Part shown: piece after piece, positions 1-13,722 of the stretch
Layout of the letters: the number at the start of each line of letters is the position of its first letter
Position numbering within the stretch: the first letter of the stretch is position 1
Source of the DNA: a virus
Lineage: Duplodnaviria > Heunggongvirae > Uroviricota > Caudoviricetes
Strand: one strand, 5' to 3'
Virus record (IMG/VR): IMGVR_UViG_2778261570_000018
Coordinates: 1-13,722 of that record
DNA: 13,722 bases
The notes under the pieces: model-generated
Databases searched by the model: none
What the model was told of the DNA's origin: nothing
What the model saw: the letters and a program-made list of their open reading frames with translations, nothing else
Program-made: the position numbers and the translations under genes

Positions 1-215
1 GTGCTGCGGATGATTTCCTGTCGGTGATTAACCCGGAATCGCTGGTGATCAAACAAGGCTTTGCTGAACCGTCGCTGAAAGAAGCGGTAGCGGGTAAAGC
101 ATTCCAGTTTGAGCGTGAAGGTTATTTCTGCCTCGACAGCCGCCATTCTACGGCGGAAAAACCGGTATTTAACCGCACCGTTGGGCTGCGTGATACCTGG
201 GCGAAGTTAGGTTAA
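1..215 (+). CDS. glnS: Glutaminyl-tRNA synthetase, C-terminal fragment (5' end lies outside the window)
   Basis: Frame 3 is open from the window edge and reads [71 protein letters not shown] recognise this as the C-terminus of enterobacterial GlnRS. Stop TAA is at 213-215. Confidence 0.9.
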
Positions 216-240
216 TAGGTATTTCGCCACATGAAAAAGT

Positions 241-265
241 AAACGCCGCTACTGCGGCGTTTTTT
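241..265. terminator. Intrinsic terminator shared by convergent glnS and the Dam-like gene
   Basis: AAACGCCGC (241-249) / loop TACT / GCGGCGTTT (254-262), followed by a T-run to 265. The reverse strand also has T-rich sequence after the hairpin (TTTACTTTTT). The stop codon of the minus-strand gene (264-266) sits inside the T-run. Confidence 0.75.
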
Positions 266-1169
266 ACTTCATTATTGCAATTATATCGTTAGCAACTACA
301 CGTGTTGACGCCTTGCAGGAAACCGACCGTCTGGCTGCCATATGATGTACTTTAAACCCGTTTCCTTCATATAGCTCACGGATGTTTGGAGCACCACTAT
401 TTGTTATCACTACCTTAGCGCCGCGCTGGTGGGCATCCACCAACAGTGATACAAGCCGTTTTTGTTCATCGAAACGGAAGCTATTTCCTGAATAGCTGGT
501 AAATCCCTCTGTATCCGGAAGCGGTTCATACGGCGGATCACAAAAAATCACATCGTCTTCACCAGCCGCCTCGATGACGCTAGCAAAGTCTCCTGATACA
601 AAGGAAGTGTTTTTGAGTACGTCATCAGCCAAAAATGCCTCCATCTCTGCATGTGGGAAGTAGGGCGCTTTGTATTTGCCATACCCCACGTTGAACTCGC
701 CATTTTGGTTGTACCGCGTTACGCCATTAAAACAGTGACGATTAAGGTACAAAAATGCGGCAGCATGATGTAGCTGGTCATATTTTCCTCTGTTAAATGC
801 CTCACGCACTTCGAGGTAAGCGTCAGCGTTGTTGTAATTTTTGAAAAAACTATATGACAGCGTGACGAGCGAATGTCCTTCTCGCTGCAATGTCTGATAG
901 AAGTTAATCAGGTCACCGTTAATATCATTAAGCAGGTTGTGGCGAAATCCTGCATTCGTAAATACGGAACCGCCACCAACGAATGGTTCTATTAACCGCT
1001 TACCGTGTGGTAGATGCTCAAGCACTGTAGGCAATTCTGAGAATTTACCACCTACCCATTTGAATATCGGACGCTCATATTCATCCGGAGTCCGAATGGT
1101 GCGCATATAGCTAATTTCAGCCATCGTATCCTGTTTTTCTATGGCTATGCTTGCTATAGATTTACTCAT
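264..1169 (-). CDS. dam: Dam-family (D12 class) DNA N6-adenine methyltransferase
   Basis: Motifs FKWVGGK, IEPFVGGGSV (SAM site), FLYLNRHCFNG, GEFNV and catalytic DPPY, colinear with E. coli Dam by eye. Start set at ATG 1169 (MSKS...), with a GGGGG SD 6 nt upstream and an ATGAGTAA overlap with the upstream stop. ATG 1124 (MAEI...) is an alternative. The 333-aa form in the ORF track would run through the upstream gene. Confidence 0.85.
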   Translation of the reverse strand: MSKSIASIAIEKQDTMAEISYMRTIRTPDEYERPIFKWVGGKFSELPTVLEHLPHGKRLIEPFVGGGSVFTNAGFRHNLLNDINGDLINFYQTLQREGHSLVTLSYSFFKNYNNADAYLEVREAFNRGKYDQLHHAAAFLYLNRHCFNGVTRYNQNGEFNVGYGKYKAPYFPHAEMEAFLADDVLKNTSFVSGDFASVIEAAGEDDVIFCDPPYEPLPDTEGFTSYSGNSFRFDEQKRLVSLLVDAHQRGAKVVITNSGAPNIRELYEGNGFKVHHMAARRSVSCKASTRVVANDIIAIMK

Positions 1170-1842
1170 AGAGCACCCCCTTATTCGCTTCGAAAACTGC
1201 CTTTGCGAATCCATGTGGAGTAGCACTTCGAAAATTAGCCCTGTCAGGCCCTGGTGGCGCGGCATGGATTCTGTTATCTGGCTTGCCTAATGATTCGTCC
1301 ATTAGGGCATCAGGCATGACAAAGCCCTGGCCGCTCCAGAGGCATGTTTTTTTGGTGTAGTTATCTTCCTGACAATATGCAGTGAAGAAGTAAGGGTGAA
1401 AGATGTGATCTGGCTTACGCCAGAATGTCGATATTTTGCTGACCGGATTTTCAATCATGTACGGACAACCGATCATCTTTGCAATGTCATAACACTGCCA
1501 GACAACCTGCATTGCTTTGAACTGGAAAACCGGATCTTTATTAGCCTTGTCCGAAAACCAGCGCGCGCCGGAAACAGCCAGGTCAGTACACGGTGGGAAC
1601 CCGGCCAGAAACACGATGCGCTGCAAATTCTTACGGAGAAAAGCGTATACTTCATCGCTATCGATGATCGCACTAATACGCGTCAGAACGGCACCTGATT
1701 GCATCCGCTCGTCACTGGTCGATAAGTGCTGTGGATCGACGATAGCGGCATCGACACCGTATTCCAGCCAGGGGGCAACCATTGCCCCCGTAAAATCACA
1801 AAGACTCACAACAAGCGGTCGGTTATTATCGTTCTGCTTCAC
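1162..1842 (-). CDS. Compact C5-cytosine-methyltransferase-like protein (about 226 aa)
   Basis: Motif IV-like [19 protein letters not shown] (PC catalytic dipeptide), motif VI-like MIENP, degenerate motif [10 protein letters not shown], and C-terminal [15 protein letters not shown] resembling motif X. Start chosen at GTG 1842, with GGAGG 9 nt upstream and a 17-nt overlap with the rdgC-like stop. The ATG at 1914 would lie deep inside the upstream gene. Confidence 0.55.
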
Positions 1843-2731
1843 CGCCAATGGCCTCCACCAGCGCGTTAAACAGTGCAGATAATTCGCCCGTAAAGAGCAC
1901 GAAATCAGCATCAAATCGTTGTGCTACATCCTCCCGGTCGATATCGTCGTTCTGGTCATAGAGATCATCACAGAATGTCAGGGCTTTGATACTCATATCA
2001 TCGTTGACTCTGAACGACGCACGGTCCATCCAGTTAATTGCAACGGTCGTAGCTACTTTCCCCGCCTCAATGTGAGACATAATCTCGTCGGACTGTAGAT
2101 CAACTTTGTTGCAGCGAACGGCACCACCATTATCGAGCAGACCCTTTAATGTGGCGTCTTCACCTGCTGTAAATCCGGCAGGGAAGCCGCTTTTAAACCA
2201 CTCGGTCATTGTAATTTCCAGCGGTTCGCGTGGTGTGAATGGAATGACAGGCAGGCTGCCGAGCGACTTTCGCAATAAAGCCAGCTGGTCCTCTGCCTTT
2301 TTGGCGCTGCTTGCCTCAACGAATACCAGATGGTTGCTGCGGTCGATCAGGATTTTGGCGAGTGATTTTCTCGTGAACGCGCGAGGCAAAAGTGAATGCA
2401 GGACTTCATCTTTAAGACTGTCTCTTTCCGTTTTCTTCAGCTTGCGGGCTTGCTCTTCTTCGAGTTTCAGGACTTTTTTCTGCAACTCTTCCTTGAGCAC
2501 CTGCGAGGGGAGAATTTTTTCTTCTCGCTTATGCTGTATTAGCAGAAAACCCTGGTATTCATGGGTGAGGTTGTCACCAAGAACAGGTGTCCAACCGACT
2601 TTAGCTGTGTCCTGAGAACCGCAAGGAGTAAACACGAATTTGCTAAGAGCATCGGATACTTCTGCGGCACTCCAGTTAACTTCACGTGAAAGACGATAGA
2701 TGAAGATGTTTTTGAAAGCGACTGATCTCAT
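1826..2731 (-). CDS. rdgC: RdgC-family recombination-associated DNA-binding protein (mobile paralogue)
   Basis: 301 aa, colinear with E. coli RdgC as I recall it. Shared blocks: [100 protein letters not shown] and a GGEA.R C-terminus. Confidence 0.9.
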
Positions 2732-2737
2732 GTTTCA

Positions 2738-2781
2738 CCAATTGTGTTAGAAAATTCTATTCAATTATCTAACACAATTGG
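2738..2781 (-). promoter_or_regulatory. Perfect 14-bp inverted repeat flanking a TAGAAT hexamer, between the spike gene and rdgC
   Basis: CCAATTGTGTTAGA (2738-2751) and TCTAACACAATTGG (2768-2781) are exact reverse complements, separated by a 16-nt AT-rich spacer. On the minus strand the spacer contains TAGAAT. The downstream arm overlaps the weak GGTGA RBS of rdgC. Confidence 0.6.
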
Positions 2782-2790
2782 ATGTGTTTT

Positions 2791-3444
2791 CTATCCCTTC
2801 TTGAAATCAAAGTTGCTTGCGATAGCCTGGAAGGTGCCTCCAGCCTTGAAATCAATATTTTCGTCGGCTGTCACAGTAATGTTTTTGCCATTAACGCTGA
2901 TGTTATCGGCTGATTTGACGTTAACACTCCCTCCCGCATTCACTACTACATCAGCCGGACCAATGATGTATATCTGCCCTGATTCATTCATTCCAATCCT
3001 TGAGCCTGCTGCCGTATTCGCTATTTCATATCCACCGCCAGCCGTTCGCACTTCGAGCACATTGTTGCGGTGAATCACGAAATCTTTTGTCGCCGAAAAT
3101 TGCGGGCGGGGAGGCGCTCCGTCTACTTCTGGTGGCGTCCAGCCGCTACCATTGCCTGACGCCTCCGGCGCGACGTTTGGTACTCCGCCAGGCGCATCCT
3201 GAGCTGCGCCAACTATCATTGGGCGTCTGGTATCAATTCGACCATTAACATCCAGATAAGGAAACTCTACCCATACCAGGTCGCCTTTTACTGTAGGTAC
3301 AAAAGCGTTTCCGATGGGTAACAGGTATTCCGCCCAGGGTAGATCGTCATCAGGAACGCCATTCCAGTCAGGTAAAACACGGACTTGAGCACGCATAAGC
3401 CCTGCCGGGTGCACAGTTCCAACAATTTGCGCTCTACGCTTCAT
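2791..3444 (-). CDS. Phage baseplate/tail-tip central spike (gp5 / gpV / VgrG-OB-like)
   Basis: The N-terminal pattern GTVHPAGLMRAQVRVLPDWNGVPDDDLPWAEYLLPIGNAFVPTVKGDLVWVEFPYLD...RPMIVGAA fits the gp5/gpV OB-fold signature. The C-terminus is beta-helix-like repeats (VNAGGSVNVKSADNISVNGKNITVTADENIDFKAGG). ATGA start/stop overlap with the upstream gene at 3441-3444. Confidence 0.65.
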   Translation of the reverse strand: MKRRAQIVGTVHPAGLMRAQVRVLPDWNGVPDDDLPWAEYLLPIGNAFVPTVKGDLVWVEFPYLDVNGRIDTRRPMIVGAAQDAPGGVPNVAPEASGNGSGWTPPEVDGAPPRPQFSATKDFVIHRNNVLEVRTAGGGYEIANTAAGSRIGMNESGQIYIIGPADVVVNAGGSVNVKSADNISVNGKNITVTADENIDFKAGGTFQAIASNFDFKKG

Positions 3445-4421
3445 TTGTTCGGCACTCCCAATATCATTCGTGTTGTGTAGCCTACGCGGTCTTCAAAGTG
3501 CGCAACATTTTTTACTATCAGCTTACGGGGCATTGATTCATCAATGCGGTTTTCCTGGTCATAGCGGTATACGATAATCTCTATCACCATTCCCGGTTTT
3601 ATATCAGGATTGCCTGCGACTTCTATATCCATTTTGGGGACGAGAGACAGCTGCATATTGCGAAGAGTTTCCATATCAGAGTCGGATATATAACGCACTG
3701 GGAGTGAGCTATCGCCATATTCGACGTAGCCATCGGTCATGGAATACCCAACAAAACGATATTGATTCTTTGCTGTTGTCGCATGTTCCTGTTGGAGTAG
3801 GCGCATTTTGGACAAAGTGTATTCTGCTTTAGGGTTATTCCCCTCGTAGGTAAATGATGGCGTTTGCTTCATCAGATCAGCCAGGGTGTAAAAGTTAAAT
3901 TCCCCCCGGCATACCCAACATAATGCACCTTTGTCTCGCGCTATCTCCGAAAGCATTTTTGACGGTTTGTCACCGGCATTCAGATGATATGTAACTGCGC
4001 GTTTTAGCACGCTGCTGGTAATTTTAAGTTTGCCGGAATATGCCTTGAATATAGCGTCTGGTGTTTTGTTGGTATGTAAATTTGTGCGCGGGGAGGGGAT
4101 CTTAAACCTGCGCACGTCTTCACTGACAGCAATAACGGTAACAACATCACCAGCCAGCATTGCAGACGTAACAAAGAAATCTGTTTTAAAAGTGCCTGCA
4201 TTACCGTTTGGATCGCCCATTTCAGCCACCAGCGATGCACCGTATTTGGCTTTCCAGTCATCAATTACGGTGCCGGTAGCGTCATGAATTTCCAGTTTTA
4301 GCAAAGGGGCTTTGAGGCTGGTTTTTTCTACATATACTGCGGTAAAAATCCAGTCTCGTGGCACTTTGTTATCGTTAATGAGCACTGACTGTAGAAAATA
4401 TTGTTGTAACTCCTGGGCCAC
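3441..4421 (-). CDS. Probable tail/baseplate hub protein (gp27 / P2 gpD-like), 326 aa
   Basis: Position immediately upstream of, and coupled to, the spike gene. There is weak by-eye resemblance to the gpD/gp27 layout (LKLEIHDATG...GASLVAEMG...GTFKTDFFV...VTVIAVSED, then KPSKMLSEIARDKGALCWVCRGEFNFY). GTG start at 4421 lies 3 nt after the upstream stop (TGATAAGTG). Confidence 0.4.
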   Translation of the reverse strand: MAQELQQYFLQSVLINDNKVPRDWIFTAVYVEKTSLKAPLLKLEIHDATGTVIDDWKAKYGASLVAEMGDPNGNAGTFKTDFFVTSAMLAGDVVTVIAVSEDVRRFKIPSPRTNLHTNKTPDAIFKAYSGKLKITSSVLKRAVTYHLNAGDKPSKMLSEIARDKGALCWVCRGEFNFYTLADLMKQTPSFTYEGNNPKAEYTLSKMRLLQQEHATTAKNQYRFVGYSMTDGYVEYGDSSLPVRYISDSDMETLRNMQLSLVPKMDIEVAGNPDIKPGMVIEIIVYRYDQENRIDESMPRKLIVKNVAHFEDRVGYTTRMILGVPNK

Positions 4422-4424
4422 TTA

Positions 4425-5192
4425 TCACCCCATAGATATCGAGGTTTCGGTAATAATACGTTTTGCGTCCAACTCCCATGCTGTGATCACGTCTGCAATC
4501 ACACTTATCGGCGCTTGTGTGGCATAAATACGCTCTTCTCCAATTGGTGCTGAAACATCCGTAAAGCCGACTTCTTTGGCATCCTGTATCGAGCAAATCA
4601 ACGGGACCGGGACACGAACAAGGTGAGTGGTGGCTTCAAATTGTGTACCTGTCATCAGGCGAAGCCGTGCGCCCAGCGAATTACACATCAGACTCATGGT
4701 CGCTTTATCAGTTGCCATTAACGTAACGTCATACGTCAGAATGGCCTGGGTGTATTCCAGTTCTGCTAAAGGCATTCCGGTATCCGGTTCGCAAAAACTG
4801 GCTACTTTTTTGCGGTCAATCTGCTGATCATCGTTGATATAATTGATATCCATAGTGCGTGAGATATTGACCAGGGGGAGAGCATCCCGGTTAATGTTCT
4901 GGTTTTCAGGTTTTCTCCCTTGCCCGGCATTTGCGCGACGAACTGCTTTAAGAAACTCGATCGCATTGTCGAAACGGGCCACATAGACACGCTCTGCTGG
5001 TGGACGATTCAGGAATGACGCAAAGCGTTTTTCTTCCGGCGCGGGGGCCACCAGTAAGATATCAGAAAAAATGTTGCTGATTAGCGTCGCAAACGCGTTA
5101 TCCACGTTTTCAAAGCCCGTGGTCTGGAATTTTCCTGTGCGTGAGGTTTGCCATTCACCTGTTCGCGCCAGGAGGGTTTTATTTGAAGTCAT
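4425..5192 (-). CDS. Hypothetical protein, phage-associated (255 aa), possibly tail-tip component by position
   Basis: Long ORF with a GGAG SD 7 nt upstream of the ATG and an ATGA overlap with the upstream gene (5189-5192). I recognise no motifs. Confidence 0.6.
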   Translation of the reverse strand: MTSNKTLLARTGEWQTSRTGKFQTTGFENVDNAFATLISNIFSDILLVAPAPEEKRFASFLNRPPAERVYVARFDNAIEFLKAVRRANAGQGRKPENQNINRDALPLVNISRTMDINYINDDQQIDRKKVASFCEPDTGMPLAELEYTQAILTYDVTLMATDKATMSLMCNSLGARLRLMTGTQFEATTHLVRVPVPLICSIQDAKEVGFTDVSAPIGEERIYATQAPISVIADVITAWELDAKRIITETSISMG

Positions 5193-5980
5193 TCGATCAC
5201 TCCGTTTTGAGTCGTATCAAAATTCCTGGCAGGTATGCAGTAGTAAAGCGAACCAACATGTTGTGTGCCGTAGCTAAAAATACGGTGCACGTACCACCAG
5301 CGGCGGGCTACGCCGTTTACCATCTCTTCATTCCATTCAAGAATTGATCCGACGGGGACTTTATTTGCTGCAATACGCAGAATCAGAACATCATCGGTTA
5401 AGCCATCCTGCTCACCGTCTGCGTCAATCGCATGGAAAGAGTCACGCCCGTCCGGGTTATCCAGCACATAAACGATTTCAGGTTCCTGGTAAGTCAGTTC
5501 GCGCTGGTTGTTATCCAGTTCAGTGAATGACTCTTCTCCTGTTTCGTCGCTGACTACCCCATATGTGCCAACATCTGGTCGATATAAGAGAGCCTGAAAC
5601 GCGTCTGGGCTGGATTCAATAATCAGCATCCAGTCTGCGCGGATTTGGTCGTTAAAGGCTTTATGCCCGTTATAGCGTGCTTTTAACTGTGGAGTCGGTT
5701 CTCTGCCAGCCAGGGAAGATGGAAGTATGGCTATATCTGATTCGCCAGCATCCGGAGTAAGGCCACCGTTGCTATCAGCAAAATTATCATGGCTATCAGC
5801 TTTGGCGGCGGGTTGCTCTTCCAGAATGCTGAATGAATCCGAACCGGTATTGCCATGTTCCGGCGCGCCTCCTGCATTCGCTTCAATCGGCGCTGGCGTT
5901 TCTCTCTGCGTGCTGTCATGTTCTGACTCCTTACTTGCCAGGTTTGCATCGTCAGCAAACCATTCGTCAAAACGGCCCAT
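5189..5980 (-). CDS. Hypothetical protein with acidic, low-complexity N-terminal region (about 263 aa)
   Basis: Long ORF. Start set at ATG 5980 (MGRFDEW...) because GAGGA lies 5 nt upstream. The track start at 5992 is a TTG. The N-terminal ~100 aa are D/E/S/P/A-rich and the C-terminal part looks globular (..RRWWYVHRIFSYGTQHVGSLYYCIPARNFD). Confidence 0.6.
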   Translation of the reverse strand: MGRFDEWFADDANLASKESEHDSTQRETPAPIEANAGGAPEHGNTGSDSFSILEEQPAAKADSHDNFADSNGGLTPDAGESDIAILPSSLAGREPTPQLKARYNGHKAFNDQIRADWMLIIESSPDAFQALLYRPDVGTYGVVSDETGEESFTELDNNQRELTYQEPEIVYVLDNPDGRDSFHAIDADGEQDGLTDDVLILRIAANKVPVGSILEWNEEMVNGVARRWWYVHRIFSYGTQHVGSLYYCIPARNFDTTQNGVIE

Positions 5981-6074
5981 AAGCATCCTCAAAGGTCGAT
6001 CTGTCAGGTATCGAAAGGAAGATTTTCGGGAGATTGTGATTTTGGATGAAGGAGGGGGAATTCATAAAATGCAC

Positions 6075-6103
6075 TTGCGCACAGTGCAACGGTGCGCTAT
6101 AGT
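6075..6103 (+). promoter_or_regulatory. Candidate sigma70 promoter and operator of higBA-1
   Basis: TTGCGC (6075-6080), 17-nt spacer, TATAGT (6098-6103). The spacer carries nested inverted repeats GCGCAC(6077-6082)/GTGCGC(6092-6097) and TGCAC(6070-6074)/GTGCA(6084-6088), typical of an autoregulated TA operator. Confidence 0.55.
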
Positions 6104-6142
6104 TATGGCATTCAGTAATCCTCACGGAGGATCAAATGGCTA

Positions 6143-6445
6143 ATGACCAAAAAAATTAACATAAAGGATTTCAGGGATGCGTGGCTTGATGATTTTTTTG
6201 AATTTTCAACACCACATAGAAAGATACCTCCTGATATTCATATGACATTGTCACGGAAGTTGGACATTATCAATGCCGCAACTACCTGTAATGATTTAAG
6301 ATCACCACCAGGTAATCGGTATGAGGAACTGTCAGGGAAGCTAAATGGCTATTCATCAGTAAGGGTGAATAAGCAATATAGGTTAATTTTTAAGTGGGTT
6401 AACGGAAAGGCCGAGGACTTGTATCTCGACCCTCACAAATACTAA
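6143..6445 (+). CDS. higB: HigB-family (RelE/ParE superfamily, 'killer protein') type II toxin
   Basis: 100 aa. Contains RSPPGNRYEELSGKLNGYSSVRVNKQYRLIFKWVNGKAEDLYLDPHKY, characteristic of HigB toxins. It is followed by a cognate HTH antitoxin (toxin-first order typical of hig loci). Confidence 0.8.
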   Translation: MTKKINIKDFRDAWLDDFFEFSTPHRKIPPDIHMTLSRKLDIINAATTCNDLRSPPGNRYEELSGKLNGYSSVRVNKQYRLIFKWVNGKAEDLYLDPHKY

Positions 6446-6452
6446 AACAGAT

Positions 6453-6471
6453 ACCCGGTTACGAACCGGGT
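6453..6471 (+). promoter_or_regulatory. Intercistronic hairpin between higB-1 and higA-1
   Basis: ACCCGGT (6453-6459) / loop TACGA / ACCGGGT (6465-6471), a perfect 7-bp stem within an unusually long 70-nt toxin-antitoxin spacer. No T-run follows. Confidence 0.45.
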
Positions 6472-6515
6472 TCTGACCAGAGTCCACTTAATACGCACGC
6501 TAGTAAGGGCAAAAA

Positions 6516-6854
6516 ATGAAACAGGCAACCAGAAAACCGACGACCGTAGGTGATATCCTGCTGTACGAATACCTGGAGCCGTTAGAGCTGAAGATCAACG
6601 AGTTAGCAGAAATACTTCATGTTCATCGTAACACCGTAAGTGCTCTTGTTAATAATAATCGTAAGCTAACGATGGATATGGCATATCGCCTGGCAAAAGC
6701 ATTCGATACTTCTGTAGATTTTTGGATTAATCTTCAGACCGCAGTAGATCTGTGGGAAGTCGAAAATGATATGCGCGTTCAGGAAGAGTTAAGTCGTATC
6801 AATACTGCTGAAAAATTTATTTCTCAGCGGAACCTGAATAAAAAAGCAGCCTGA
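6516..6854 (+). CDS. higA: HigA-family (VapI/XRE HTH) antitoxin
   Basis: 112 aa. TVGDILLYEYLEPLELKINELAEILHVHRNTVSALVNNNRKLTMDMAYRLAKAFDTSVDFWINLQTAVDLW is the classic HigA/VapI HTH pattern. AAGGG SD lies 6 nt upstream. Confidence 0.85.
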   Translation: MKQATRKPTTVGDILLYEYLEPLELKINELAEILHVHRNTVSALVNNNRKLTMDMAYRLAKAFDTSVDFWINLQTAVDLWEVENDMRVQEELSRINTAEKFISQRNLNKKAA

Positions 6855-6873
6855 TATAGTAAAACACATACAA

Positions 6874-6905
6874 AAAGCCCACTTAGCAAGTGGGCTTTCC
6901 TTTGT
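6874..6905. terminator. Intrinsic terminator after higBA-1 (bidirectional shape)
   Basis: AAAGCCCACT (6874-6883) / loop TAGCA / AGTGGGCTTT (6889-6898), followed by CCTTTG. The A-run upstream supplies a U-run for the opposite strand. Confidence 0.75.
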
Positions 6906-6910
6906 AATTA

Positions 6911-7270
6911 ATGAACATTAAACCCATCCGTACAGAACAAGATTATGAGGCCGCACTGCGTGCGGTCGAACCGATGTTCGATAACGAACCGGAAATGAAT
7001 ACTCCGGAAGGTGATTTCTTTGAGGTTATGAGTCTTCTCATTGAGGAGTACGAGAAAAAACATTACCCAATTGAGCCACCATCACCTATTGAGGCCATTA
7101 AATTCCGTATGGAACAGCAAGGGCTGACCGTGAAGGATCTGGAACCGGCAATTGGTAAGTCAAACCGTGTTTACGAAGTGCTTAATGGGACACGAAATTT
7201 GACGTTACCTATGATTCGTCGTTTACATGCCCAGTTTGGTATTCCACTGGAAAGCCTGGTTGGCGTTTGA
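6911..7270 (+). CDS. Orphan HigA(YgjM)/COG5499-type HTH antitoxin-like regulator
   Basis: 119 aa. The N-terminal domain is MNIKPIRTEQDYEAALRAVEPMFDNEPEMNTPEGDFFEVMSLLIEEYEKKHYPI. The C-terminal HTH is IEAIKFRMEQQGLTVKDLEPAIGKSNRVYEVLNGTRNLTLPMIRRLHAQFGIPLESLV. This is the same architecture as E. coli HigA (YgjM) as I recall it. No partner toxin of the matching family is adjacent. Confidence 0.75.
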   Translation: MNIKPIRTEQDYEAALRAVEPMFDNEPEMNTPEGDFFEVMSLLIEEYEKKHYPIEPPSPIEAIKFRMEQQGLTVKDLEPAIGKSNRVYEVLNGTRNLTLPMIRRLHAQFGIPLESLVGV

Positions 7271-7275
7271 GTTTT

Positions 7276-7300
7276 GCGGTCTGGATGACCGCTGTTTTTA
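7276..7300 (+). terminator. Intrinsic terminator after the orphan HTH gene
   Basis: GCGGTC (7276-7281) / loop TGGAT / GACCGC (7287-7292), followed by TGTTTTTA. Confidence 0.65.
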
Positions 7301-7333
7301 TAAAAAATAGATACTAGAAATTTGGTAGCATAT

Positions 7334-8113
7334 ATGAGTACAGATTCATCAGTAAAGAAGACATCTGAATCAGATAAAGAAAATGAGTCCGTTGTTGATT
7401 CCGTCAAGAATACAATGGAATATGTTATAAAAGACAAAGTATTTAATAAGCTTTTTGCATATATTTTTATATCTTTTCTGGTTGTTAACTGGAGAGATAT
7501 ATTAATTTTGTTCAAATCAAAAGAAGATGTTCTATATACTCTGTCAATAGTTTTTACCGGTGAAAAAATACAATTTCTTGATGGCGAGATTTTACCTCCT
7601 TGGTTTGCCCACTTTTTCTTGCCGTTTTTCTATGGTGTGATTGCGTCGATTGTGGCACCAGTAATTACACTTGCGGTATCTTGCATTACAACTAAGGTGT
7701 ACTATAAAATAAAAATTTTGGACAATAAAACAGACGAAAACGAGAAAGAGAAATTAGCAAAAAGAGCCAAGAAAAGAGCTGAGCGTGAAATAGAGGCTAG
7801 CTATAGCCAACAAAAGCTGGATGAAAGAAAAAAAGAACTGGAAGACATTTTAAACAAAATAGAAGATGAAAAAGAAAAATATGATAAAATGAAAGAAAGG
7901 TTTGATGATGCCATAACGCTTACATATAAAAATATTCACATTTTGCCTACTCTGTATGAGAATAGGAAATGTAAAATTGAAACTCCGCAGGATTTATATG
8001 ATTTTATTGCAGCAATAAAGAAAACATCATTCTATAGTACTGATTTTAATGAATTGTTCTCTGATATTTCTCGATTGTATTCTGAAATGCAAACTGATTT
8101 ATCAGAAAAGTGA
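7334..8113 (+). CDS. Hypothetical membrane-anchored coiled-coil protein (about 259 aa), no recognised family
   Basis: Uninterrupted ORF in very AT-rich DNA. ATG 7334 is preferred; the track start at 7322 is a TTG. It has hydrophobic segments LFAYIFISFLVVNWRDILILF and WFAHFFLPFFYGVIASIVAPVITLAVSCI. These are followed by a K/E/R-rich heptad-like stretch (KEKLAKRAKKRAEREIEASYSQQKLDERKKELEDILNKIEDEKEKYDKMKERF) and a ~65-aa C-terminal region. Confidence 0.6.
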   Translation: MSTDSSVKKTSESDKENESVVDSVKNTMEYVIKDKVFNKLFAYIFISFLVVNWRDILILFKSKEDVLYTLSIVFTGEKIQFLDGEILPPWFAHFFLPFFYGVIASIVAPVITLAVSCITTKVYYKIKILDNKTDENEKEKLAKRAKKRAEREIEASYSQQKLDERKKELEDILNKIEDEKEKYDKMKERFDDAITLTYKNIHILPTLYENRKCKIETPQDLYDFIAAIKKTSFYSTDFNELFSDISRLYSEMQTDLSEK

Positions 8114-8114
8114 A

Positions 8115-8137
8115 AGCCTGGCATAGACCACCAGGCT
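8115..8137. terminator. Hairpin shared by convergent genes 7334-8113 (+) and 8149-9342 (-)
   Basis: AGCCTGG (8115-8121) / 9-nt loop / CCAGGCT (8131-8137). T-rich sequence follows on the minus strand (TTCACTTTTCT) and more weakly on the plus strand. Confidence 0.5.
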
Positions 8138-8148
8138 ATATGTGTGGT

Positions 8149-9342
8149 TTATGCTTTTTTTACATACGCCATAAACATTTTTTCAGCATGTTCTTGTGGC
8201 GTTCCTGCCATGACAAGCGCATCAATGAACGCCTGCTTCTTCAGTGCGAACTGATCGGCCAGGCGTTGCTGAAGCTCCTTGTTTTTCTGTTTCTCACGTT
8301 GCAACGCCGCTTCTTTTGCTGCCGCCCGTTTTTTCTGTGCGTCTGACAACTTTCTGGCCTTGGTCAGTTGGTCACGTAGCTTGTCAATCTTGCCGTTGTC
8401 CTTTGCCAGTTTTGTGCTTAAAGCGGCCTGGCGCTTCTGATAGAGCCTCCATTCTCGCTTGGCAGCGTCAACGTTCGTTTTACTGCTACGATTGCGATTA
8501 AACTCCTTCTCGTCTTCTTTTGAGAAGTGTTTGGTTGTACGGCGGCGATCGTCACCAAATGCAATTTGCGTTGCAGCCTTTTGTAGCGCACGAGCAATAC
8601 TCATTTGCCAACTGGCGGACTGTAACCGCGTCATTGAGTGGATCACGTGTTTACAGGCGACGCCTTGCAGCTTCGGGTTGCGAACTTTTGGATAGGCGTA
8701 TTCTTTTGGCGGTGCCAGGGCAAAGTTACCCGCAGTGGCGATGTAACGATACCAGTATTGATGACGACCACAGTCACAATCGAAAGACACTCGCCCGGCG
8801 CACAGTGATTTAGTGATTTTGAGAGCTGATTTATCGTCTTCTGCGATGTCATCAACCATCTGATCCCATTCTTCAAAGCGTATCCGGACGATATGGTGCT
8901 GGTGGACGGATATATCCGATGCTTCTACGCGGATATTAATCACATTGTGGCGAAGAGATACGGGTGTAGCTCTTTTGATACCAGATCCGTCATCCACGGC
9001 GTTATTTGCACGCTTAATATCGATAGCCTGGCTGGATGCCACCAGCTGGGCGTATGTGATGCCAGCCGTCTTGCTGTCATATTTTTCGCGCGTTTTACTC
9101 CGTAGCTTTTCGAAGCCTTTCAGATCGTCTCGCGTAAAGAACGTGCCGCCTTTTTTCTTCCCTAACTTGAGAATATCTTCGACGGATTTGTTCCTAAGTC
9201 TGCCTGGCGTCAGCGTCCGGTGAGCTTGTCGGCGCTTACGGGTTTGTTCTTTCCTGATAAGGTCGAATAAACGCGTGAAGTCCTTAGAGGACAGACCGTC
9301 AGTGATATAGCGCCCGTCCTGGTTTTTCAGGAAATCAGGCAT
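8149..9342 (-). CDS. Phage-associated protein with SWIM-like CxC...CxH zinc-finger motif and lysine-rich coiled-coil C-terminus (397 aa)
   Basis: FDCDCGRHQYW...(38 residues)...GVACKHVIH resembles a SWIM finger with an expanded linker. The C-terminal ~110 aa are K/R/Q/A-rich heptad-like. GGAG SD lies 7 nt upstream, and there is an 8-nt overlap (ATGCCTGA) with the upstream gene. Confidence 0.5.
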   Translation of the reverse strand: MPDFLKNQDGRYITDGLSSKDFTRLFDLIRKEQTRKRRQAHRTLTPGRLRNKSVEDILKLGKKKGGTFFTRDDLKGFEKLRSKTREKYDSKTAGITYAQLVASSQAIDIKRANNAVDDGSGIKRATPVSLRHNVINIRVEASDISVHQHHIVRIRFEEWDQMVDDIAEDDKSALKITKSLCAGRVSFDCDCGRHQYWYRYIATAGNFALAPPKEYAYPKVRNPKLQGVACKHVIHSMTRLQSASWQMSIARALQKAATQIAFGDDRRRTTKHFSKEDEKEFNRNRSSKTNVDAAKREWRLYQKRQAALSTKLAKDNGKIDKLRDQLTKARKLSDAQKKRAAAKEAALQREKQKNKELQQRLADQFALKKQAFIDALVMAGTPQEHAEKMFMAYVKKA

Positions 9343-9664
9343 TTTCTATCTCCGGTTCCGCGCTCGCGTAATCACGGATCTTGTTCCTCAGCCATGCCAC
9401 ATCAGGAAGAGTTAACGTGGTCCCGGCGGGCATTTCTTCCATTTCTGACTCATGGCCCACCAGCACCCGGAATACCCAGCGCAAATCTGCATTGCCATAC
9501 GCCCTGTAGGCTGCAAGGTCTGAACGATATACTTCATCAATCTTTATCGTGTACTGGAAATTATCAGAGTGATACTCCGATACCCGCTTAATCATTTCCT
9601 GGTGAAACAGCGCACGAAAAATATCGTCTTCAATGTACCTATCGTCGAGTCTGCTATAGCCCAT
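9335..9664 (-). CDS. Hypothetical protein (109 aa), coupled to the SWIM-like gene
   Basis: ORF with a GAGGGG SD 7 nt upstream of ATG 9664. It overlaps the start of the downstream gene. I recognise no motifs. Confidence 0.55.
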   Translation of the reverse strand: MGYSRLDDRYIEDDIFRALFHQEMIKRVSEYHSDNFQYTIKIDEVYRSDLAAYRAYGNADLRWVFRVLVGHESEMEEMPAGTTLTLPDVAWLRNKIRDYASAEPEIENA

Positions 9665-9726
9665 AACAAAGCCCCTCAGTCATAACCTGGGGGAAACTGT
9701 ATGTAGGGTGTGAAATGCGAGAAAGC

Positions 9727-9750
9727 AGCGTCACCGGGCCTGGTGACGCT
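9727..9750 (-). terminator. Hairpin/terminator after higBA-2
   Basis: AGCGTCACC (9727-9735) / loop GGGCCT / GGTGACGCT (9742-9750), a 9-bp stem. On the minus strand it is followed by GCTTTCTCGCATTTC (moderately U-rich). Confidence 0.5.
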
Positions 9751-9756
9751 GTGAAG

Positions 9757-10038
9757 TTATGCGTGGAAAAATAATGGACGGATGTTTGGGCGAGCGGTTT
9801 GCGAAGCAACCCAAAGCTCATACTGAGATTGCATACCGGTCCACATTTCGGCACTGGTTCCAAGAGCGGACTCCAGACGAAGTGCCATATCAGCAGAAAT
9901 GCCTGCTTTTTCGTTCAGAATTCGGGAAAGTGCCGTGCGAGTAATGCCTAATGCAGCAGCGGCGTCTGTGACTGACATGTCTCCCAAATATTCACGAAGA
10001 ACCGCGCCAGGATGCGCGGGATTATGCATACGACTCAT
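9757..10038 (-). CDS. higA: HigA-family (VapI/XRE HTH) antitoxin, second copy
   Basis: [76 protein letters not shown] is the canonical HigA/VapI pattern. ATG 10038 has an AGGA SD 5 nt upstream. The track start at 10050 is a TTG overlapping the toxin stop. Confidence 0.85.
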
Positions 10039-10046
10039 AGTGTTCC

Positions 10047-10328
10047 TCAATGATAATCCTGATAGTCAACTAGAATTGCGTCTTCTCCTTCAAATCGGAA
10101 GGTAAGTCGCCAGTTACCGTTTACCGATATTGCCCAGTGACCTTTAAGGTCCGCCCCCTTTAGAGGGTGCAATTCCCATCCAGGCGCAGACATATCGTCC
10201 GGGCGTTTAGCTGTATTAAGAGCAGTCAATTGAATGCGTAGCTTAACCGCATGTTTGGCCTGAATGCCTGCGGTTGAACCTGTCTTGAAAAAGCGTTCAA
10301 GCCCTTTATGGCGAAATGACTTAATCAA
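10047..10328 (-). CDS. higB: HigB-family type II toxin, second copy
   Basis: (L/M)[39 protein letters not shown]...[40 protein letters not shown] matches the HigB 'killer protein' pattern, which normally begins MIKSF. I therefore place the start at TTG 10328 (GGATGGA upstream) rather than at the track start 10391, which lies in the promoter. Confidence 0.8.
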
Positions 10329-10354
10329 AATAATTCCATCCGTGCGCGTAACCT

Positions 10355-10391
10355 GTGTATATACACTACACGCAGAGGGAGCGAAATGCAA
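10355..10391 (-). promoter_or_regulatory. Candidate higBA-2 promoter with perfect 12-bp palindromic operator
   Basis: Minus strand: TTGCAT (10391-10386), 17-nt spacer, TAGTGT (10368-10363). The perfect palindrome GTGTATATACAC (10355-10366) overlaps the -10 hexamer. Confidence 0.5.
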
Positions 10392-10529
10392 GCACTATCC
10401 GTATAGACAGAGTTTCTTCGCCGCCCTGGAATTTATTGACTGTCAACAAGTGACTTTCATTAATCTTAAGGCATGGACCAGCTCGATAGTGAGCTGGGTG
10501 TTATTTACCGATCGAATGGATTCGAAAAG

Positions 10530-10664
10530 ATGAATATTTTTAATAAGCTGATTGATTTATTGAATAAATTCATTAGTGCTTCTTTAACTCAGCAGGTATC
10601 CACGTCAGTGTTTTTGTTACTCTTCTACCTGGTATTGAGGGAGTTAACAAAGCTACTAATGTGA
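10530..10664 (+). CDS. Possible small hydrophobic peptide (44 aa; 63 aa if started at 10473)
   Basis: MNIFNKLIDLLNKFISASLTQQVSTSVFLLLFYLVLRELTKLLM has a C-terminal hydrophobic helix. The DNA is AT-rich, the SD is weak, and the stop abuts the stop of the convergent 217-aa gene. It could be a chance ORF. Confidence 0.2.
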   Translation: MNIFNKLIDLLNKFISASLTQQVSTSVFLLLFYLVLRELTKLLM

Positions 10665-11318
10665 TCAAAGTATCACGGTATCTTCATCAACTTCTTTCCC
10701 AGCCAGTGACTTTGGCTGGGAACTGCCTGCTTTAACTTTTTCATGCCCAATAATGGAAAGGAACGAAGTGAGTATGCCTGTTTTTTGCTCTTTCTCGACT
10801 GTACCGGTCATCTGCTCTACGTAATCCGCACTGGCAACGTTGTGGTATACGGTCGCGTAGCAACACAGGATCATCAGAATATGCTCCGGCCTGATATCCT
10901 GCCAGTTCACCCTGTAGACTTCTTCTCCGTTACCGTTGTATTCGGTATCAACGATAGAGTCGGGGATTTCGAAAGCACCTTTGTTATTTTGCGGCAGGGA
11001 TAATAGCTTCTGGAGTTTTAACTCTCTGTATCTTTCCATCCCGACGATGATTGCTGCTCTGCCATCGGCATGACGGGTCTTGAGAGTCACCTGGCTTGCT
11101 CCGGTGCCAGCGGAGATCGTTGGCGTAATTTCGTCTACCAGTACCTTAAATTTGCTTTTCCGCAGGGCTGCTATAGCTGGAGGAATTTTTTGCTTTTGCT
11201 CCAATGCTGACGCGGGAAGGGGTTTTACTTCGTTAATAATGAGAGCACCGTCTTTCAGTATTGCAGTGAGCATTTGAGGCTTGCTGGTGGTCAGGCTGAA
11301 TATTGCGATCTTTTCCAT
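10665..11318 (-). CDS. Hypothetical phage-associated protein (217 aa)
   Basis: Start set at ATG 11318 (MEKIAIFSL...), with GGAGAAAGGA immediately upstream. The track start at 11360 lies inside the upstream terminator. I recognise no motifs. Confidence 0.6.
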   Translation of the reverse strand: MEKIAIFSLTTSKPQMLTAILKDGALIINEVKPLPASALEQKQKIPPAIAALRKSKFKVLVDEITPTISAGTGASQVTLKTRHADGRAAIIVGMERYRELKLQKLLSLPQNNKGAFEIPDSIVDTEYNGNGEEVYRVNWQDIRPEHILMILCCYATVYHNVASADYVEQMTGTVEKEQKTGILTSFLSIIGHEKVKAGSSQPKSLAGKEVDEDTVIL

Positions 11319-11344
11319 TGTCCTTTCTCCACGGATGACGGATA

Positions 11345-11370
11345 CAAAAAAAGGCCGCACATGGCGGCCT
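11345..11370 (-). terminator. Intrinsic terminator reading on the minus strand, directly upstream of the 217-aa gene
   Basis: GGCCGC (11353-11358) / loop ACATG / GCGGCC (11364-11369). On the minus strand it is followed by seven U (A-run 11346-11352 on plus). Confidence 0.7.
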
Positions 11371-11392
11371 GCTTTGGCGTTATGACTCCCTA

Positions 11393-11450
11393 CCGCGCTT
11401 CGGCTGAAAGTTAATCGTCAAAAGAACCTTCAACGGGAGCCGTTAGCGCG
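11393..11450. repeat. Imperfect long-range inverted repeat (13-nt arms, 32-nt spacer)
   Basis: CCGCGCTTCGGCT (11393-11405) against AGCCGTTAGCGCG (11438-11450). The CGCGCT/AGCGCG and CGGCT/AGCCG blocks pair, with a 2-nt internal mismatch. Confidence 0.5.
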
Positions 11451-11586
11451 ATGGATTATGTGCAGTTTGTGATTTCCAAAATAGTGTCAACTACTTTTTG
11501 TGGATTTTATTTTTTGTCCGAAATTTGGCCTAAATCATGTTGATTTGGCTGATTATTTTTATAACATAAAACTTCATTTTGTTTAC

Positions 11587-12216
11587 ATGAAGGACGGTGT
11601 AGTGAAGTTAAGGGTTTTAGGGACCGCGCTCGCGGCTATGTTGGGATGCGTATCTGTTAATACTGCCAATGCAACTGCGTTACCTGCAAAGTATTGGGCT
11701 GGTGTGAAAGTGTTGCGGAACGCTGAAAAAGGCAATACAGCTGATGATATTTTCAAGTTTTGCCAAAAAGAAAATATCCCTCTGCACCCGGTTGAGCCGT
11801 ACTTTACAGGAAAGAATGATTTCTGTGTGTTTGCGTATACCGCAGACCAAACAGATAAGGCTATACGCAAGACAGGGTATTCTACTCAAGACACTATGGC
11901 GTCCTTAAGTAAAAACTGGTTGCAGTTTGAGGTTTACCGTAGTGAAGGAATGGGAGAGCTATTGCAGCCACTGTATATGCTGGCGTTAGTTCCGGAAGGG
12001 CAGCAGTTCCTTATTCGAAAAGGAATGCTTCGGAAAAGCGATGTAACCGGATTCAATAACACGATGGAGCTTGAACGCTCAATGAAGCAAAAGCAAGCGC
12101 CTAAGCAGCCAACAGCCGAATGTATTAGCAGCGAGATACAAAAGGCATTAAGCGAGCAGCCTTACATTGATCGTGGTGTGGCGGAAATGGCTGCCAAAAT
12201 GAAGTGTTCCAATTAA
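11587..12216 (+). CDS. Secreted protein or lipoprotein of unknown function (about 209 aa)
   Basis: Signal peptide (M)KLRVLGTALAAMLGCVSVNTANA, with a possible lipobox MLGC or SPase I site ANA-T. Start is ATG 11587 or GTG 11602 (AAGGA 7 nt upstream). The track start GTG 11500 adds an implausible AT-rich leader. Confidence 0.6.
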   Translation: MKDGVVKLRVLGTALAAMLGCVSVNTANATALPAKYWAGVKVLRNAEKGNTADDIFKFCQKENIPLHPVEPYFTGKNDFCVFAYTADQTDKAIRKTGYSTQDTMASLSKNWLQFEVYRSEGMGELLQPLYMLALVPEGQQFLIRKGMLRKSDVTGFNNTMELERSMKQKQAPKQPTAECISSEIQKALSEQPYIDRGVAEMAAKMKCSN

Positions 12217-12259
12217 CGTCAAATAGAATAACAAGATAGTAAATTTTGGAGTTAATGAA

Positions 12260-13081
12260 ATGTTCTTTATGAAAAATGGAAAAAGATTTTCCGCAACAAT
12301 GCTTGCTACTATTGTCGCTCTTTTCGTTCCCACATTCACCTTTGCTTATGATTTTAGCAAAATTGACTGCAATGCCCCTAAAACCAGGCAGATGTTAATC
12401 GATGATTATAATGAACTACTCAAGGACGATCAGGAAGCAATCACTGTAATTGATGCTTATAATCAGATTAATGAAATAAGCGAAAAAAGTAAGCTCCAAT
12501 GTTTAGGCACGTATGAGTTCTCAGATGGAAGTGCGCTTAGAGTTAGATATAAGTTATATTTAAATAGCCTCGGCACACCCATATATGAATTTGCTCCAGT
12601 TGAGGAATTAACGCAGGATGATGTAAGCGCATCTATTCAAAATATCCCTGCAACCACAGCGAGTAGGACTGGGGGGAATGAAGAAACGTATGCCTGCAAG
12701 GTGGCTGTAACTTACAAGGGGGAGCGTTCTAACTATATGGGGGATTCCGGAACATGGGATCGTGTGATTACTGACTATGGCACTTATTTTTCATGGGATT
12801 TACCACGCGGAAACCGAGGCAACAGCACAGGTCAGGATGCTTTTAGTGGCATGGACGAATCAAAGCCTGTATTAGAAAATCAGCTAGTGAGAAAGGAAAC
12901 TGAAAAAGATGGTAGCGTGGTTGATGAGTTTAGGACAGAAGTGAGTTATGGAGATAAACAACCGGTACATAAGTTTGTATATGCCCGTAGAATAAAACCT
13001 ACAGGAACGAGAGAATATTATGTCACTGATTTGACGGACAAGCGGGCATTTATGTTTCTGAATTGCCAGCAAGATTCGTAA
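12260..13081 (+). CDS. Secreted protein of unknown function (273 aa)
   Basis: GGAG lies 8 nt upstream of ATG 12260. Signal peptide MFFMKNGKRFSATMLATIVALFVPTFTFA-YD. I recognise no family. Confidence 0.6.
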   Translation: MFFMKNGKRFSATMLATIVALFVPTFTFAYDFSKIDCNAPKTRQMLIDDYNELLKDDQEAITVIDAYNQINEISEKSKLQCLGTYEFSDGSALRVRYKLYLNSLGTPIYEFAPVEELTQDDVSASIQNIPATTASRTGGNEETYACKVAVTYKGERSNYMGDSGTWDRVITDYGTYFSWDLPRGNRGNSTGQDAFSGMDESKPVLENQLVRKETEKDGSVVDEFRTEVSYGDKQPVHKFVYARRIKPTGTREYYVTDLTDKRAFMFLNCQQDS

Positions 13082-13086
13082 TTGAT

Positions 13087-13117
13087 AAAGCAGGCTTAAC
13101 GACTAAGCCTGCTTTTT
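13087..13117. terminator. Strong intrinsic terminator between convergent genes
   Basis: 12-bp stem AAAGCAGGCTTA (13087-13098) / loop ACGAC / TAAGCCTGCTTT (13104-13115), with the T-run continuing to 13117. Confidence 0.8.
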
Positions 13118-13122
13118 GAATT

Positions 13123-13473
13123 TTACTCGGTAATAGTTTTGCAGTTGTTTTGGTTTAAGACCAATCCAAGTTTGCTGGCGGCCAACTCATTTTCTGTGTG
13201 AGAGCCAGCAAATACAAATCCTTGTTTTATCTTATTTACGGTGAAATATTTATTGTATATAAATGCCCAGACAAGTGAAGCTACCCAAGGACCAATTCCT
13301 GCAGTGAGGAATGCCAGGATTAGCATCACAACGAACACCCCGATGAAAGTTATAAAGTCTTTCCTGAACAAAGCCGGGAAGGCACCAAAAAAGAACGTAG
13401 TCCAGGAGAATCCATAAAAGCCTGAGATGGACTCGCCTGTCCGAGGATTTTCTAAGTTAATTTTAGTAGCCAA
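13123..13473 (-). CDS. Small inner-membrane protein (116 aa, two hydrophobic helices; DUF2628-like impression)
   Basis: GFYGFSWTTFFFGAFPALFRKDFITFIGVFVVMLILAFLTAGIGPWVASLVWAFIY. TTG start at 13473 has an AAGGA SD 9 nt upstream. The family call is only an impression. Confidence 0.55.
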   Translation of the reverse strand: MATKINLENPRTGESISGFYGFSWTTFFFGAFPALFRKDFITFIGVFVVMLILAFLTAGIGPWVASLVWAFIYNKYFTVNKIKQGFVFAGSHTENELAASKLGLVLNQNNCKTITE

Positions 13474-13530
13474 AGTTATTCATCCTTTAACGTAAAAAAA
13501 CAAATAATTATAAAGCTGTGTGAGTGTGCT

Positions 13531-13559
13531 ATTTTACTAATCTACACTATGTTATGCAA
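13531..13559 (-). promoter_or_regulatory. Near-consensus sigma70 promoter for the small membrane protein gene
   Basis: Minus strand: TTGCAT (13559-13554), exactly 17 nt, TAAAAT (13536-13531). Confidence 0.6.
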
Positions 13560-13600
13560 TTTATTGGTATCATGCCCCGGCCTGACCGGGGCAAAAGCTA

Positions 13601-13722
13601 TTAACTAACAATCCAGTCCGTAGCAACAACATCCTCTGGAGCTAAATCAATAGCATGGATTTTCCCATCCCGGATAGTGCGCCAGTGCTTTCGTGATCCA
13701 CCTTCGGGCCACACCCATATAC
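13601..13722 (-). CDS. 3' end of an ORF continuing beyond the window (39 codons seen); C-terminus reminiscent of DUF2829
   Basis: The minus strand reads ...IWVWPEGGSRKHWRTIRDGKIHAIDLAPEDVVATDWIVS*, open to the window edge. The ending LAP.D..A.DW.IV resembles the DUF2829 C-terminal pattern (..W.PS..D.LADDWEIV). This fragment is too short to be sure. Confidence 0.3.
   Translation of the reverse strand, partial: IWVWPEGGSRKHWRTIRDGKIHAIDLAPEDVVATDWIVS

Follow-up and report, generated by a model that had tools for sequence, protein, structure and literature searches.

An antitoxin gene without a toxin gene lies in the 13,722-nt stretch of viral DNA (Caudoviricetes) that spans positions 1 to 13,722 of IMG/VR record IMGVR_UViG_2778261570_000018, hereafter called the window. 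This orphan gene (6911..7270, on the + strand, as are the other features of the window given below unless marked otherwise) is probably the surviving antitoxin half of a PF09907-HigB/YgjM-type-HigA toxin–antitoxin (TA) module native to a slot between a P1 gene-7-like and a P1 gene-25-like tail gene, and it appears to be a relic that probably has no required function. One recombination event swapped the promoter, the putative operators and the whole toxin open reading frame (ORF) of the old module for an unrelated, self-contained higBA cassette together with a hairpin. As judged from its sequence, the window belongs to a D6-like Escherichia coli phage-plasmid of the P1 family: it is 95.9% identical to Escherichia phage D6 across 84% of the window length.

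The orphan gene is an intact ATG ORF of 119 codons whose product falls in phrog_1373. The initial annotation had placed it at 6911-7300; the ORF itself ends at 7270, the remainder of that span being a downstream hairpin and T-run. Its assignment to the COG5499/YgjM-type HigA antitoxins was right, since residues 6-112 align to E. coli K-12 HigA/YgjM (phmmer against PDB: chain residues 21-132 of 5IFG_B and 5YCL_A, E ~1e-7). The protein comprises an N-terminal domain (~aa 1-61; 6911..7093), which is the sole part kept in the truncated copies described below (truncation breakpoint ~7092), and a C-terminal XRE-type helix-turn-helix (HTH) DNA-binding domain (Pfam PF01381, HTH_3; aa 63-115; 7097..7255), recognized with 24.1 bits for a cut-off of 23. 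The latter aligns with the HTH of E. coli HigA, which is also C-terminal (PMC7984235). An NCBIfam search returned no match for the orphan and none for the PF09907 toxin. The gene had already been annotated, as a 'HigA family antitoxin' in D6 and as a 'helix-turn-helix domain-containing protein' or a pseudogene in RefSeq; its D6 counterpart, orf72 ('HigA family addiction module anti-toxin'), lies 3' of orf70 and orf71, which encode a RelE-family toxin and a HigA.

The defining feature of the YgjM family, a PF09907 HigB toxin gene directly upstream and in the same operon, is missing from the window. A tblastn search with the cognate-type toxin gave only chance-level matches in the window (E <= 10), which bears out the initial description of the gene as toxin-less, and the same kind of search detected no PF09907 toxin anywhere in the complete 91-kb D6 genome (E <= 1e-3). 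Remnants of the toxin gene, sought in the window and in the D6 locus by tblastn (E <= 10) and short-word blastn, were likewise represented by chance-level matches only. The genes upstream are, as initially noted, a different and complete higBA pair: a HigB-like toxin of the RelE family (PF05015, Pfam E 2.2e-35; 6143..6445; D6_70) and a HigA antitoxin (NCBIfam TIGR02607, E 7.9e-30; Pfam HTH_3; 6516..6854; D6_71). The orphan is thus assigned to the YgjM-type HigA proteins by descent, with its module incomplete in the window.

The same slot occurs in three forms in related plasmids, in which the antitoxin gene is paired (state A), orphaned (state B) or truncated (state C). In state A, exemplified by pZ1323HEC0010-2 (locus L002), the antitoxin gene is 97.8% identical to the orphan at the DNA level (99% for the protein, the window product differing from the paired one by a single change, C41S). 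It is preceded by a gene for a 100-aa PF09907 HigB (WP_021551810.1; E 3e-34), the stop codon of which lies 3 nt before the antitoxin gene; the family norm invoked in the initial annotation, a toxin of ~100 aa encoded just before the antitoxin, can therefore be seen directly in the orthologous alleles of sibling plasmids. A GGAG at -11 to -8 of the L002 antitoxin gene is embedded in the 3' end of the toxin gene. Upstream of the pair, state A has its own promoter region with two palindromes, TCCCAACATGGGAC and GTCCCATATTGGGA (L002 2627-2670), which are putative operators; one of them lies between hexamers that, read by eye, resemble -35 and -10 elements. In state B, to which the window, D6 and others belong, the promoter and toxin are replaced by the RelE-type PF05015 higBA cassette and a hairpin. 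State C, exemplified by pE2863-2, has the same cassette and junction as state B, but the match to the antitoxin gene stops at nt 182; five foreign codons and a stop codon follow, which leaves a 66-codon stump, and a different gene lies downstream. The stump is recorded by PGAP as a pseudogene ('incomplete; missing C-terminus') and corresponds to phrog_10398, a family of 66-aa proteins.

The limits of the exchange can be placed precisely. The window and L002 are collinear to ~6042 (...GGAGATTGTGATTT) and diverge thereafter, the incoming cassette beginning with the segment 6043..6142. On the other side, the breakpoint lies at 6904-6907, where megablast homology to L002 resumes (at 6904), and coincides with an in-frame TAA (6905..6907) located 3 nt before the orphan ATG: this triplet is the counterpart of the stop codon of the lost PF09907 toxin (state A, ...CTGGAGTAAATCATG; window, ...CCTTTGTAATTAATG). 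Alignment of the two forms shows that segment 6043-6904 replaced exactly the old promoter, the palindromes and the toxin ORF, up to the stop codon of the latter. Two single-nucleotide polymorphisms (SNPs) aside, the junction does not vary among the state-B and state-C loci, and one junction common to all of them therefore indicates a single event. In three state-B loci (L011, L038 and L058) the relic TAA is mutated to GAA (TTTGGAATTAATG) and a second SNP is present in the hairpin loop; this sub-lineage takes in both pseudogenised alleles described below.

As to the direction of the change, 63 IMG/VR loci were compared: relatives of the antitoxin at 47-94% identity that lie in other contexts, among them lambdoid prophages, Shiga-toxin (Stx) phages and phages of Riemerella and Bacteroides, almost all have a PF09907 toxin gene directly upstream. 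Four relatives at 46-52% identity (L059, L060, L066 and L068) yielded no upstream toxin in a tblastn search (E <= 1e-5). In deposited phage records, antitoxin relatives are found in the same Stx, Riemerella and Bacteroides records that have the toxin (44), with adjoining genes; the exceptions are D6 and a few weak or partial metagenomic matches (MT839815, LR745208 and LR756502). Because relatives elsewhere are almost all paired with a PF09907 toxin, the paired state is taken as ancestral and the orphan state as derived, and these comparisons establish the descent of the orphan from a PF09907/YgjM-type pair. An orphan antitoxin would indeed be the expected scar of such an exchange, because a host should survive only those events in which the toxin is lost and the antitoxin left in place, whereas deletion of the antitoxin with the toxin kept would be lethal.

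The exchange also affected the signals required for expression. The 3' end of the incoming cassette forms a terminator-like hairpin (6874..6905) whose 11-bp stem occupies 6874-6898 (-17.9 kcal/mol, z -5.8); CCTTTGTAAT comes next, and this hairpin is present in every state-B and state-C locus. The initial annotation had described it as a strong terminator: the hairpin does exist, but 'strong' is an overstatement on the + strand, where its strength is uncertain because the T-tract is interrupted (TTTCCTTTGTAATT). The sequence 5' of the orphan ATG, GGGCTTTCCTTTGTAATTA, is devoid of a purine-rich ribosome-binding site, in agreement with the reported lack of a Shine-Dalgarno (SD) sequence, and a consensus scan found no consensus promoter within ~250 nt upstream of the gene. 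The state-A palindrome had one match with one mismatch in the window, at 4474, which is not credible as 0.32 such matches are expected by chance. Compared with state A, loss of the ribosome-binding site and of the palindromes in state B is apparent from the alignments themselves. In E. coli higBA, a single promoter lies upstream of the toxin gene and there is no transcription start before the second gene (PMC2814082). With the promoter, operators and GGAG gone, the orphan would be expressed only through read-through of the hairpin combined with SD-independent initiation, and probably weakly. The gene does have, as initially proposed, a terminator-like hairpin of its own downstream (7276..7300; stem-loop 7276-7292, -11.3 kcal/mol, then TGTTTTTATA), which is native to the old TA module: its sequence is also found in state A (L002 3375-3400). 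A terminator scan of the region gave 9 terminator-like sites for 1.7 expected.

We assessed how common the three states are in the PLSDB plasmids and in 5,426 complete E. coli genomes. Of the PLSDB plasmids, 109 have a match to the orphan gene, which is full-length in 36 and ends at query nt 182 in ~70; the PF09907 toxin is present in 21 plasmids. The region is matched in 93 of the complete genomes, always on plasmids, and the states number about 17 A, 25 B and 51 C. The cassette is found in 76 genomes, again exclusively plasmid-borne, and is accompanied by the hairpin and a full-length orphan in 25. The orphan is therefore broken or truncated in most related plasmids. None of the 76 cassette matches is chromosomal, so that these genomes reveal no home for the cassette outside plasmids; the plasmids that bear it are mostly ~75-100 kb in size, with two larger ones of 129 and 216 kb.

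The orphan is presumably no longer needed: constraint on it is relaxed, and copies have a nonsense mutation or a frameshift or, in the lineage found most often, lack the entire HTH half. We compared the polymorphism of eight state-A and nine state-B alleles. Paired copies displayed 1 nonsynonymous and 28 synonymous variants, compared to 14 (Q69stop included) and 34 for orphan copies, a significant contrast (Fisher p = 0.0065) although the sample is small and the test not phylogeny-aware. Paired copies are thus under strong purifying selection and orphan copies under relaxed constraint. Three nonsynonymous and no synonymous variants are private to the state-C stumps. Disabling changes of the kind that the initial annotation had named as the mark of a silent, decaying gene were also found in related strains: L038, which is identical to the copy of pGF60-C (L070), combines Q69stop with five nonsynonymous changes that are private, the L070 copy being flagged by PGAP as a pseudogene ('internal stop'); L058 has a +1 insertion at codon 52/53 that shifts the frame. 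In all, 2 of 11 distinct state-B alleles are disrupted and the state-C copies are all truncated. With this stop, this frameshift and a C-terminal half that most related plasmids have lost, the decaying remnant, one of three readings initially offered, is the one favoured here; purifying selection that would maintain the orphan state is not what the nonsense, frameshifted, truncated and mosaic alleles reveal. Single frameshifts such as that of L058 nevertheless need read-level confirmation: in L046 (2501-2856), a -1 frameshift within a stretch of eight A affects an antitoxin gene beside an intact toxin gene and probably reflects faulty assembly, not a viable genotype.

The variable sites of the orphan alleles are distributed as mosaics. 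One state-B allele (L071) is identical to the state-A alleles L014 and L015, and two others (L008 and L010) are 2 nt away from that of L002. More generally, a shared 5' haplotype designated 'old B', with C41S among its variants and found in state C too, is combined with 3' halves corresponding to those of state-A alleles that are linked to the same downstream gene cluster. These 3' halves track the cluster of the gene downstream, and downstream clusters 1, 3 and 4 are each found with both state A and state B. With variable cassettes on both sides, the 360-bp antitoxin gene is the sole stretch of conserved DNA between them and, from this pattern, clearly acts as a recombination arm: recombination within the gene is evident from the alleles. 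Orphan alleles would be repeatedly overwritten by recombination with the selected, paired alleles of state-A plasmids, and the intactness of the window copy is weak evidence for function because paired alleles refresh orphans in this way. Persistence of the orphan may accordingly reflect the lethality of the reverse loss, the recency of the swap and gene conversion.

Several observations weigh against a relic devoid of required function. The window copy is intact and only one conservative change (C41S) away from the paired protein, and 9 of the 11 distinct state-B alleles are intact. The variants private to state B amount to 12 nonsynonymous for 279 sites and 15 synonymous for 78 sites, i.e. 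a pN/pS of ~0.2 and not 1, an estimate that unsampled A alleles and recombination push downward; private variants alone give no significant contrast between this state and state A (p = 0.11). Constraint on the orphan is thus down roughly an order of magnitude and not visibly gone. As regards expression, the T-tract of the upstream hairpin is interrupted and the A/U-rich leader could permit SD-independent initiation. What remains in the state-C stump is exactly the N-terminal domain, which in modular HigA-type antitoxins can be the part that neutralises the toxin. Yang and colleagues are said to have found, in 2016, that the N-terminal domain of E. coli HigA binds HigB. An N-terminal segment of VcHigA2 neutralises its toxin alone (PMC5416850). 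Finally, the same host species harbours closely related candidate target toxins.

These points raise the question of whether the old antitoxin was kept as an antidote against the PF09907 HigB toxins of state-A siblings or of a related pair carried by lambdoid prophages, as the initial annotation had suggested in proposing an anti-addiction or anti-defence role. It could then allow the element to displace incompatible state-A plasmids without post-segregational killing, or to avoid abortion of infection by the prophage pair. Candidate target toxins are indeed encoded by co-resident or competing elements. The cognate toxin is present in the same plasmid family (the 21 PLSDB plasmids mentioned above), states A and B sharing replicon cluster 1704, and a chromosomal pair with 89-90% (toxin, WP_000692026.1) and 93-94% (antitoxin) amino acid identity is present in 148 of the 5,426 complete E. 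coli genomes. At the one chromosomal locus examined (L069) the pair is part of the early region of a lambdoid prophage; the strain concerned, FWSEC0003, has in addition a state-B plasmid whose orphan is intact. Precedents exist for orphan antitoxins in anti-addiction and phage counter-defence (PMC7354431; bioRxiv 10.1101/2024.07.11.602962), most state-B alleles are intact, and the N-terminal domain persists as an ORF in state C: by analogy with VcHigA2, the 66-aa stump might suffice as a minimal antidote. Yet no promoter, operator or SD sequence is seen, and a hairpin lies directly upstream; nonsense and frameshift alleles occur, and the HTH half is gone in about two-thirds of the cassette-bearing plasmids; constraint is relaxed compared with paired copies; the private variants of the stump are all nonsynonymous; and the mosaic alleles account for intactness without selection. 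Co-occurrence with the chromosomal pair is moreover at the level of chance: one of the 25 state-B genomes appears among the ~85 listed of the 148 genomes with the pair, and ~0.7 would be expected over all 148. We therefore regard retention as an antidote as unlikely, albeit worth keeping in mind. A somewhat less probable extension is that the swap was a one-sided weapon, which would combine a new pair that state A cannot counter with a retained antidote to the state-A poison and would thereby enable displacement or infection.

As regards the chromosomal pair itself, its hosts include many Shiga-toxin-producing serotypes (O26, O45, O103, O121; loci L069 and L016-L037). In the chromosome of E. 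coli O45:H2 FWSEC0003 (L069 9001-9665), it is found between dicB/ydfC and a divergently oriented gene for an HTH protein, and a 42-44%-identical version of the pair is located in the immunity region of the Stx phages H-19B, BP-4795 and others.

A DNA-binding HTH protein encoded next to, and on the same strand as, another gene could in principle be its transcriptional regulator. The initial annotation had raised this for the gene that follows the orphan (7322..8113; phrog_8191), a hypervariable neighbour outside the module that encodes a membrane and coiled-coil protein. The two genes, however, are separated by a terminator-like hairpin conserved in states A and B, and each occurs without the other, which contradicts the proposal: L014 and L015 (state A) and L071 and L073 (state B) retain the HTH gene but not the downstream gene, of which state C, devoid of the HTH domain, has another allele. 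In addition, upstream state and downstream allele reassort freely, no inverted repeat is found in 7260-7340, and nothing in the window credibly matches the state-A operator motif. A regulatory role of this kind is thus very improbable. The downstream protein has a hydrophobic N-terminal half and a K/E-rich coiled-coil tail and matches no Pfam or PADLOC family. Its gene forms at least 8 allele clusters, with 36-65% amino acid identity, between otherwise near-identical plasmids (alleles elsewhere: L002 3382-4209; L003 4134-4862; L005 4333-5070) and is frameshifted in L008 and L010. It may be regarded as a fast-turnover cargo slot, possibly for exclusion or defence.

The constant position of the orphan, directly 3' of the cassette in all state-B and state-C loci, could alternatively mean that it has become a third component of the upstream PF05015 higBA pair, as a second antitoxin or a co-regulator. 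We give this idea even less credence than the regulatory one: the cassette comes with a TIGR02607 HigA and a terminator-like hairpin of its own and, by eye, with its own promoter; it persists where the orphan is truncated (~51 E. coli genomes) or, in others, pseudogenised; and the relatives of the orphan pair with PF09907 toxins, not with PF05015 toxins. The promoter-like sequence, TTGCGC-17 nt-TATAGT at 6075-6103, overlaps the inverted repeat GCGCAC/GTGCGC; it was recognized by eye and is absent from the consensus-scan list. By eye as well, a GGAGG (6123-6127) lies 8 nt from an ATG (6136) that opens a mini-ORF of seven codons (MANDQKN and a stop; 6136-6159). This mini-ORF overlaps the start of higB at 6143, the ATG of the toxin gene itself being 15 nt from the SD sequence, and could be a device that holds translation of the toxin low.

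A match in PADLOC led us to consider a defence system. The orphan matches the PD-Lambda-2_B profile (E 4e-43, positions 1-119 of 402) and the state-A toxin the PD-Lambda-2_A profile (E 1e-41). In PD-lambda-2, however, the B protein combines a HigA-like HTH with a C-terminal ImmA/IrrE-type peptidase, and a third component related to a P4 antitoxin is required (Vassallo et al. 2022, PMC9519451). The present locus has neither the peptidase domain nor such a third gene, which rules out this system; the gene after the orphan is the membrane/coiled-coil gene, which has no PADLOC match and is absent in some alleles. The matches to the PD-Lambda-2_A and PD-Lambda-2_B profiles arise only because HigB-like and HigA-like domains are held in common.

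The slot itself is bounded by two conserved tail genes on the - strand. The left flank (5189..5992; D6_69, 'similar to P1 gene 7') encodes a P1 gene-7-like protein with 79-100% amino acid identity across all D6-context loci, and the right flank (8149..9342; D6_74) a P1 gene-25-like protein with 95-98% identity among the full-length matches in these loci. Beyond it, the window contains a second complete higBA pair (9757-10391, - strand), with a PF05015 HigB-like toxin (10047-10391, E 1e-20) and an HTH_3 HigA-like antitoxin (9757-10050) whose genes overlap by 4 nt. This pair sits between P1 gene-26-like and mat-like genes, where D6 has two tiny ORFs only, and brings the content of the window to two full PF05015 higBA modules plus the orphan antitoxin.

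We finally compared the orphan with known systems. Like HigA of the E. coli K-12 HigB/HigA pair (YgjN/YgjM; PDB 5IFG and 5YCL; PMC2814082), it has two domains with a C-terminal HTH, and its orthologous alleles have the PF09907 toxin gene first, abutting the antitoxin gene, and palindromes in the promoter region; by contrast with the K-12 pair, the toxin, promoter and palindromes are gone from the window, and the relationship is distant (35 bits; 119 aa compared to 138 aa). Orphan antitoxins are abundant in E. coli and Klebsiella (PMC10790755; PMC7354431), and a Klebsiella survey, as reported in PMC7354431, put them down mostly to degraded modules (PMC7192599). The present gene resembles such remnants in being toxin-less at a former TA locus and in its decay in related genomes. 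It differs from simple erosion in that the toxin was precisely replaced by a different, complete TA cassette, and from the surveyed remnants in that the paired, orphan and truncated stages all circulate in one plasmid family.

The likeness to antitoxins with a demonstrated protective role is more limited. According to the account given in PMC7354431, the anti-addiction CcdA of Erwinia chrysanthemi acts against CcdB of the F plasmid; there as here, an antitoxin exists apart from a toxin that it could neutralise, close toxins of the orphan being found on siblings and prophages. The Erwinia case, though, as described there, involves a full chromosomal pair with demonstrated cross-neutralisation, whereas the orphan lacks its expression signals and many of its copies are broken. 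AdfN, which acts against DarTG1 (bioRxiv 10.1101/2024.07.11.602962), and, as cited in PMC7354431, T4 Dmd, which acts against RnlA/LsoA, are likewise antitoxin-like products of phage genes without a toxin. In these accounts, they are encoded by lytic phages and their activity and expression have been shown, whereas the orphan is a gene of a temperate phage-plasmid and one half of the TA module of the element itself.

The orphan is therefore an ordinary TA relic with a well-resolved history, and not a new system. What the case adds is an unusually complete natural series within one phage-plasmid family, in which a TA pair was orphaned by precise cassette exchange and then truncated. It illustrates how one TA module takes the place of another at a cargo slot that stays fixed, and why it is the antitoxin half that survives. 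It also calls for caution, as a relic can retain an intact appearance through recombination with paired alleles, and an intact ORF is therefore weak evidence of function. Were the orphan a retained antidote after all, it would bear on TA-mediated competition between related phage-plasmids, and the series from state A through state B to state C would be a natural example of such competition.

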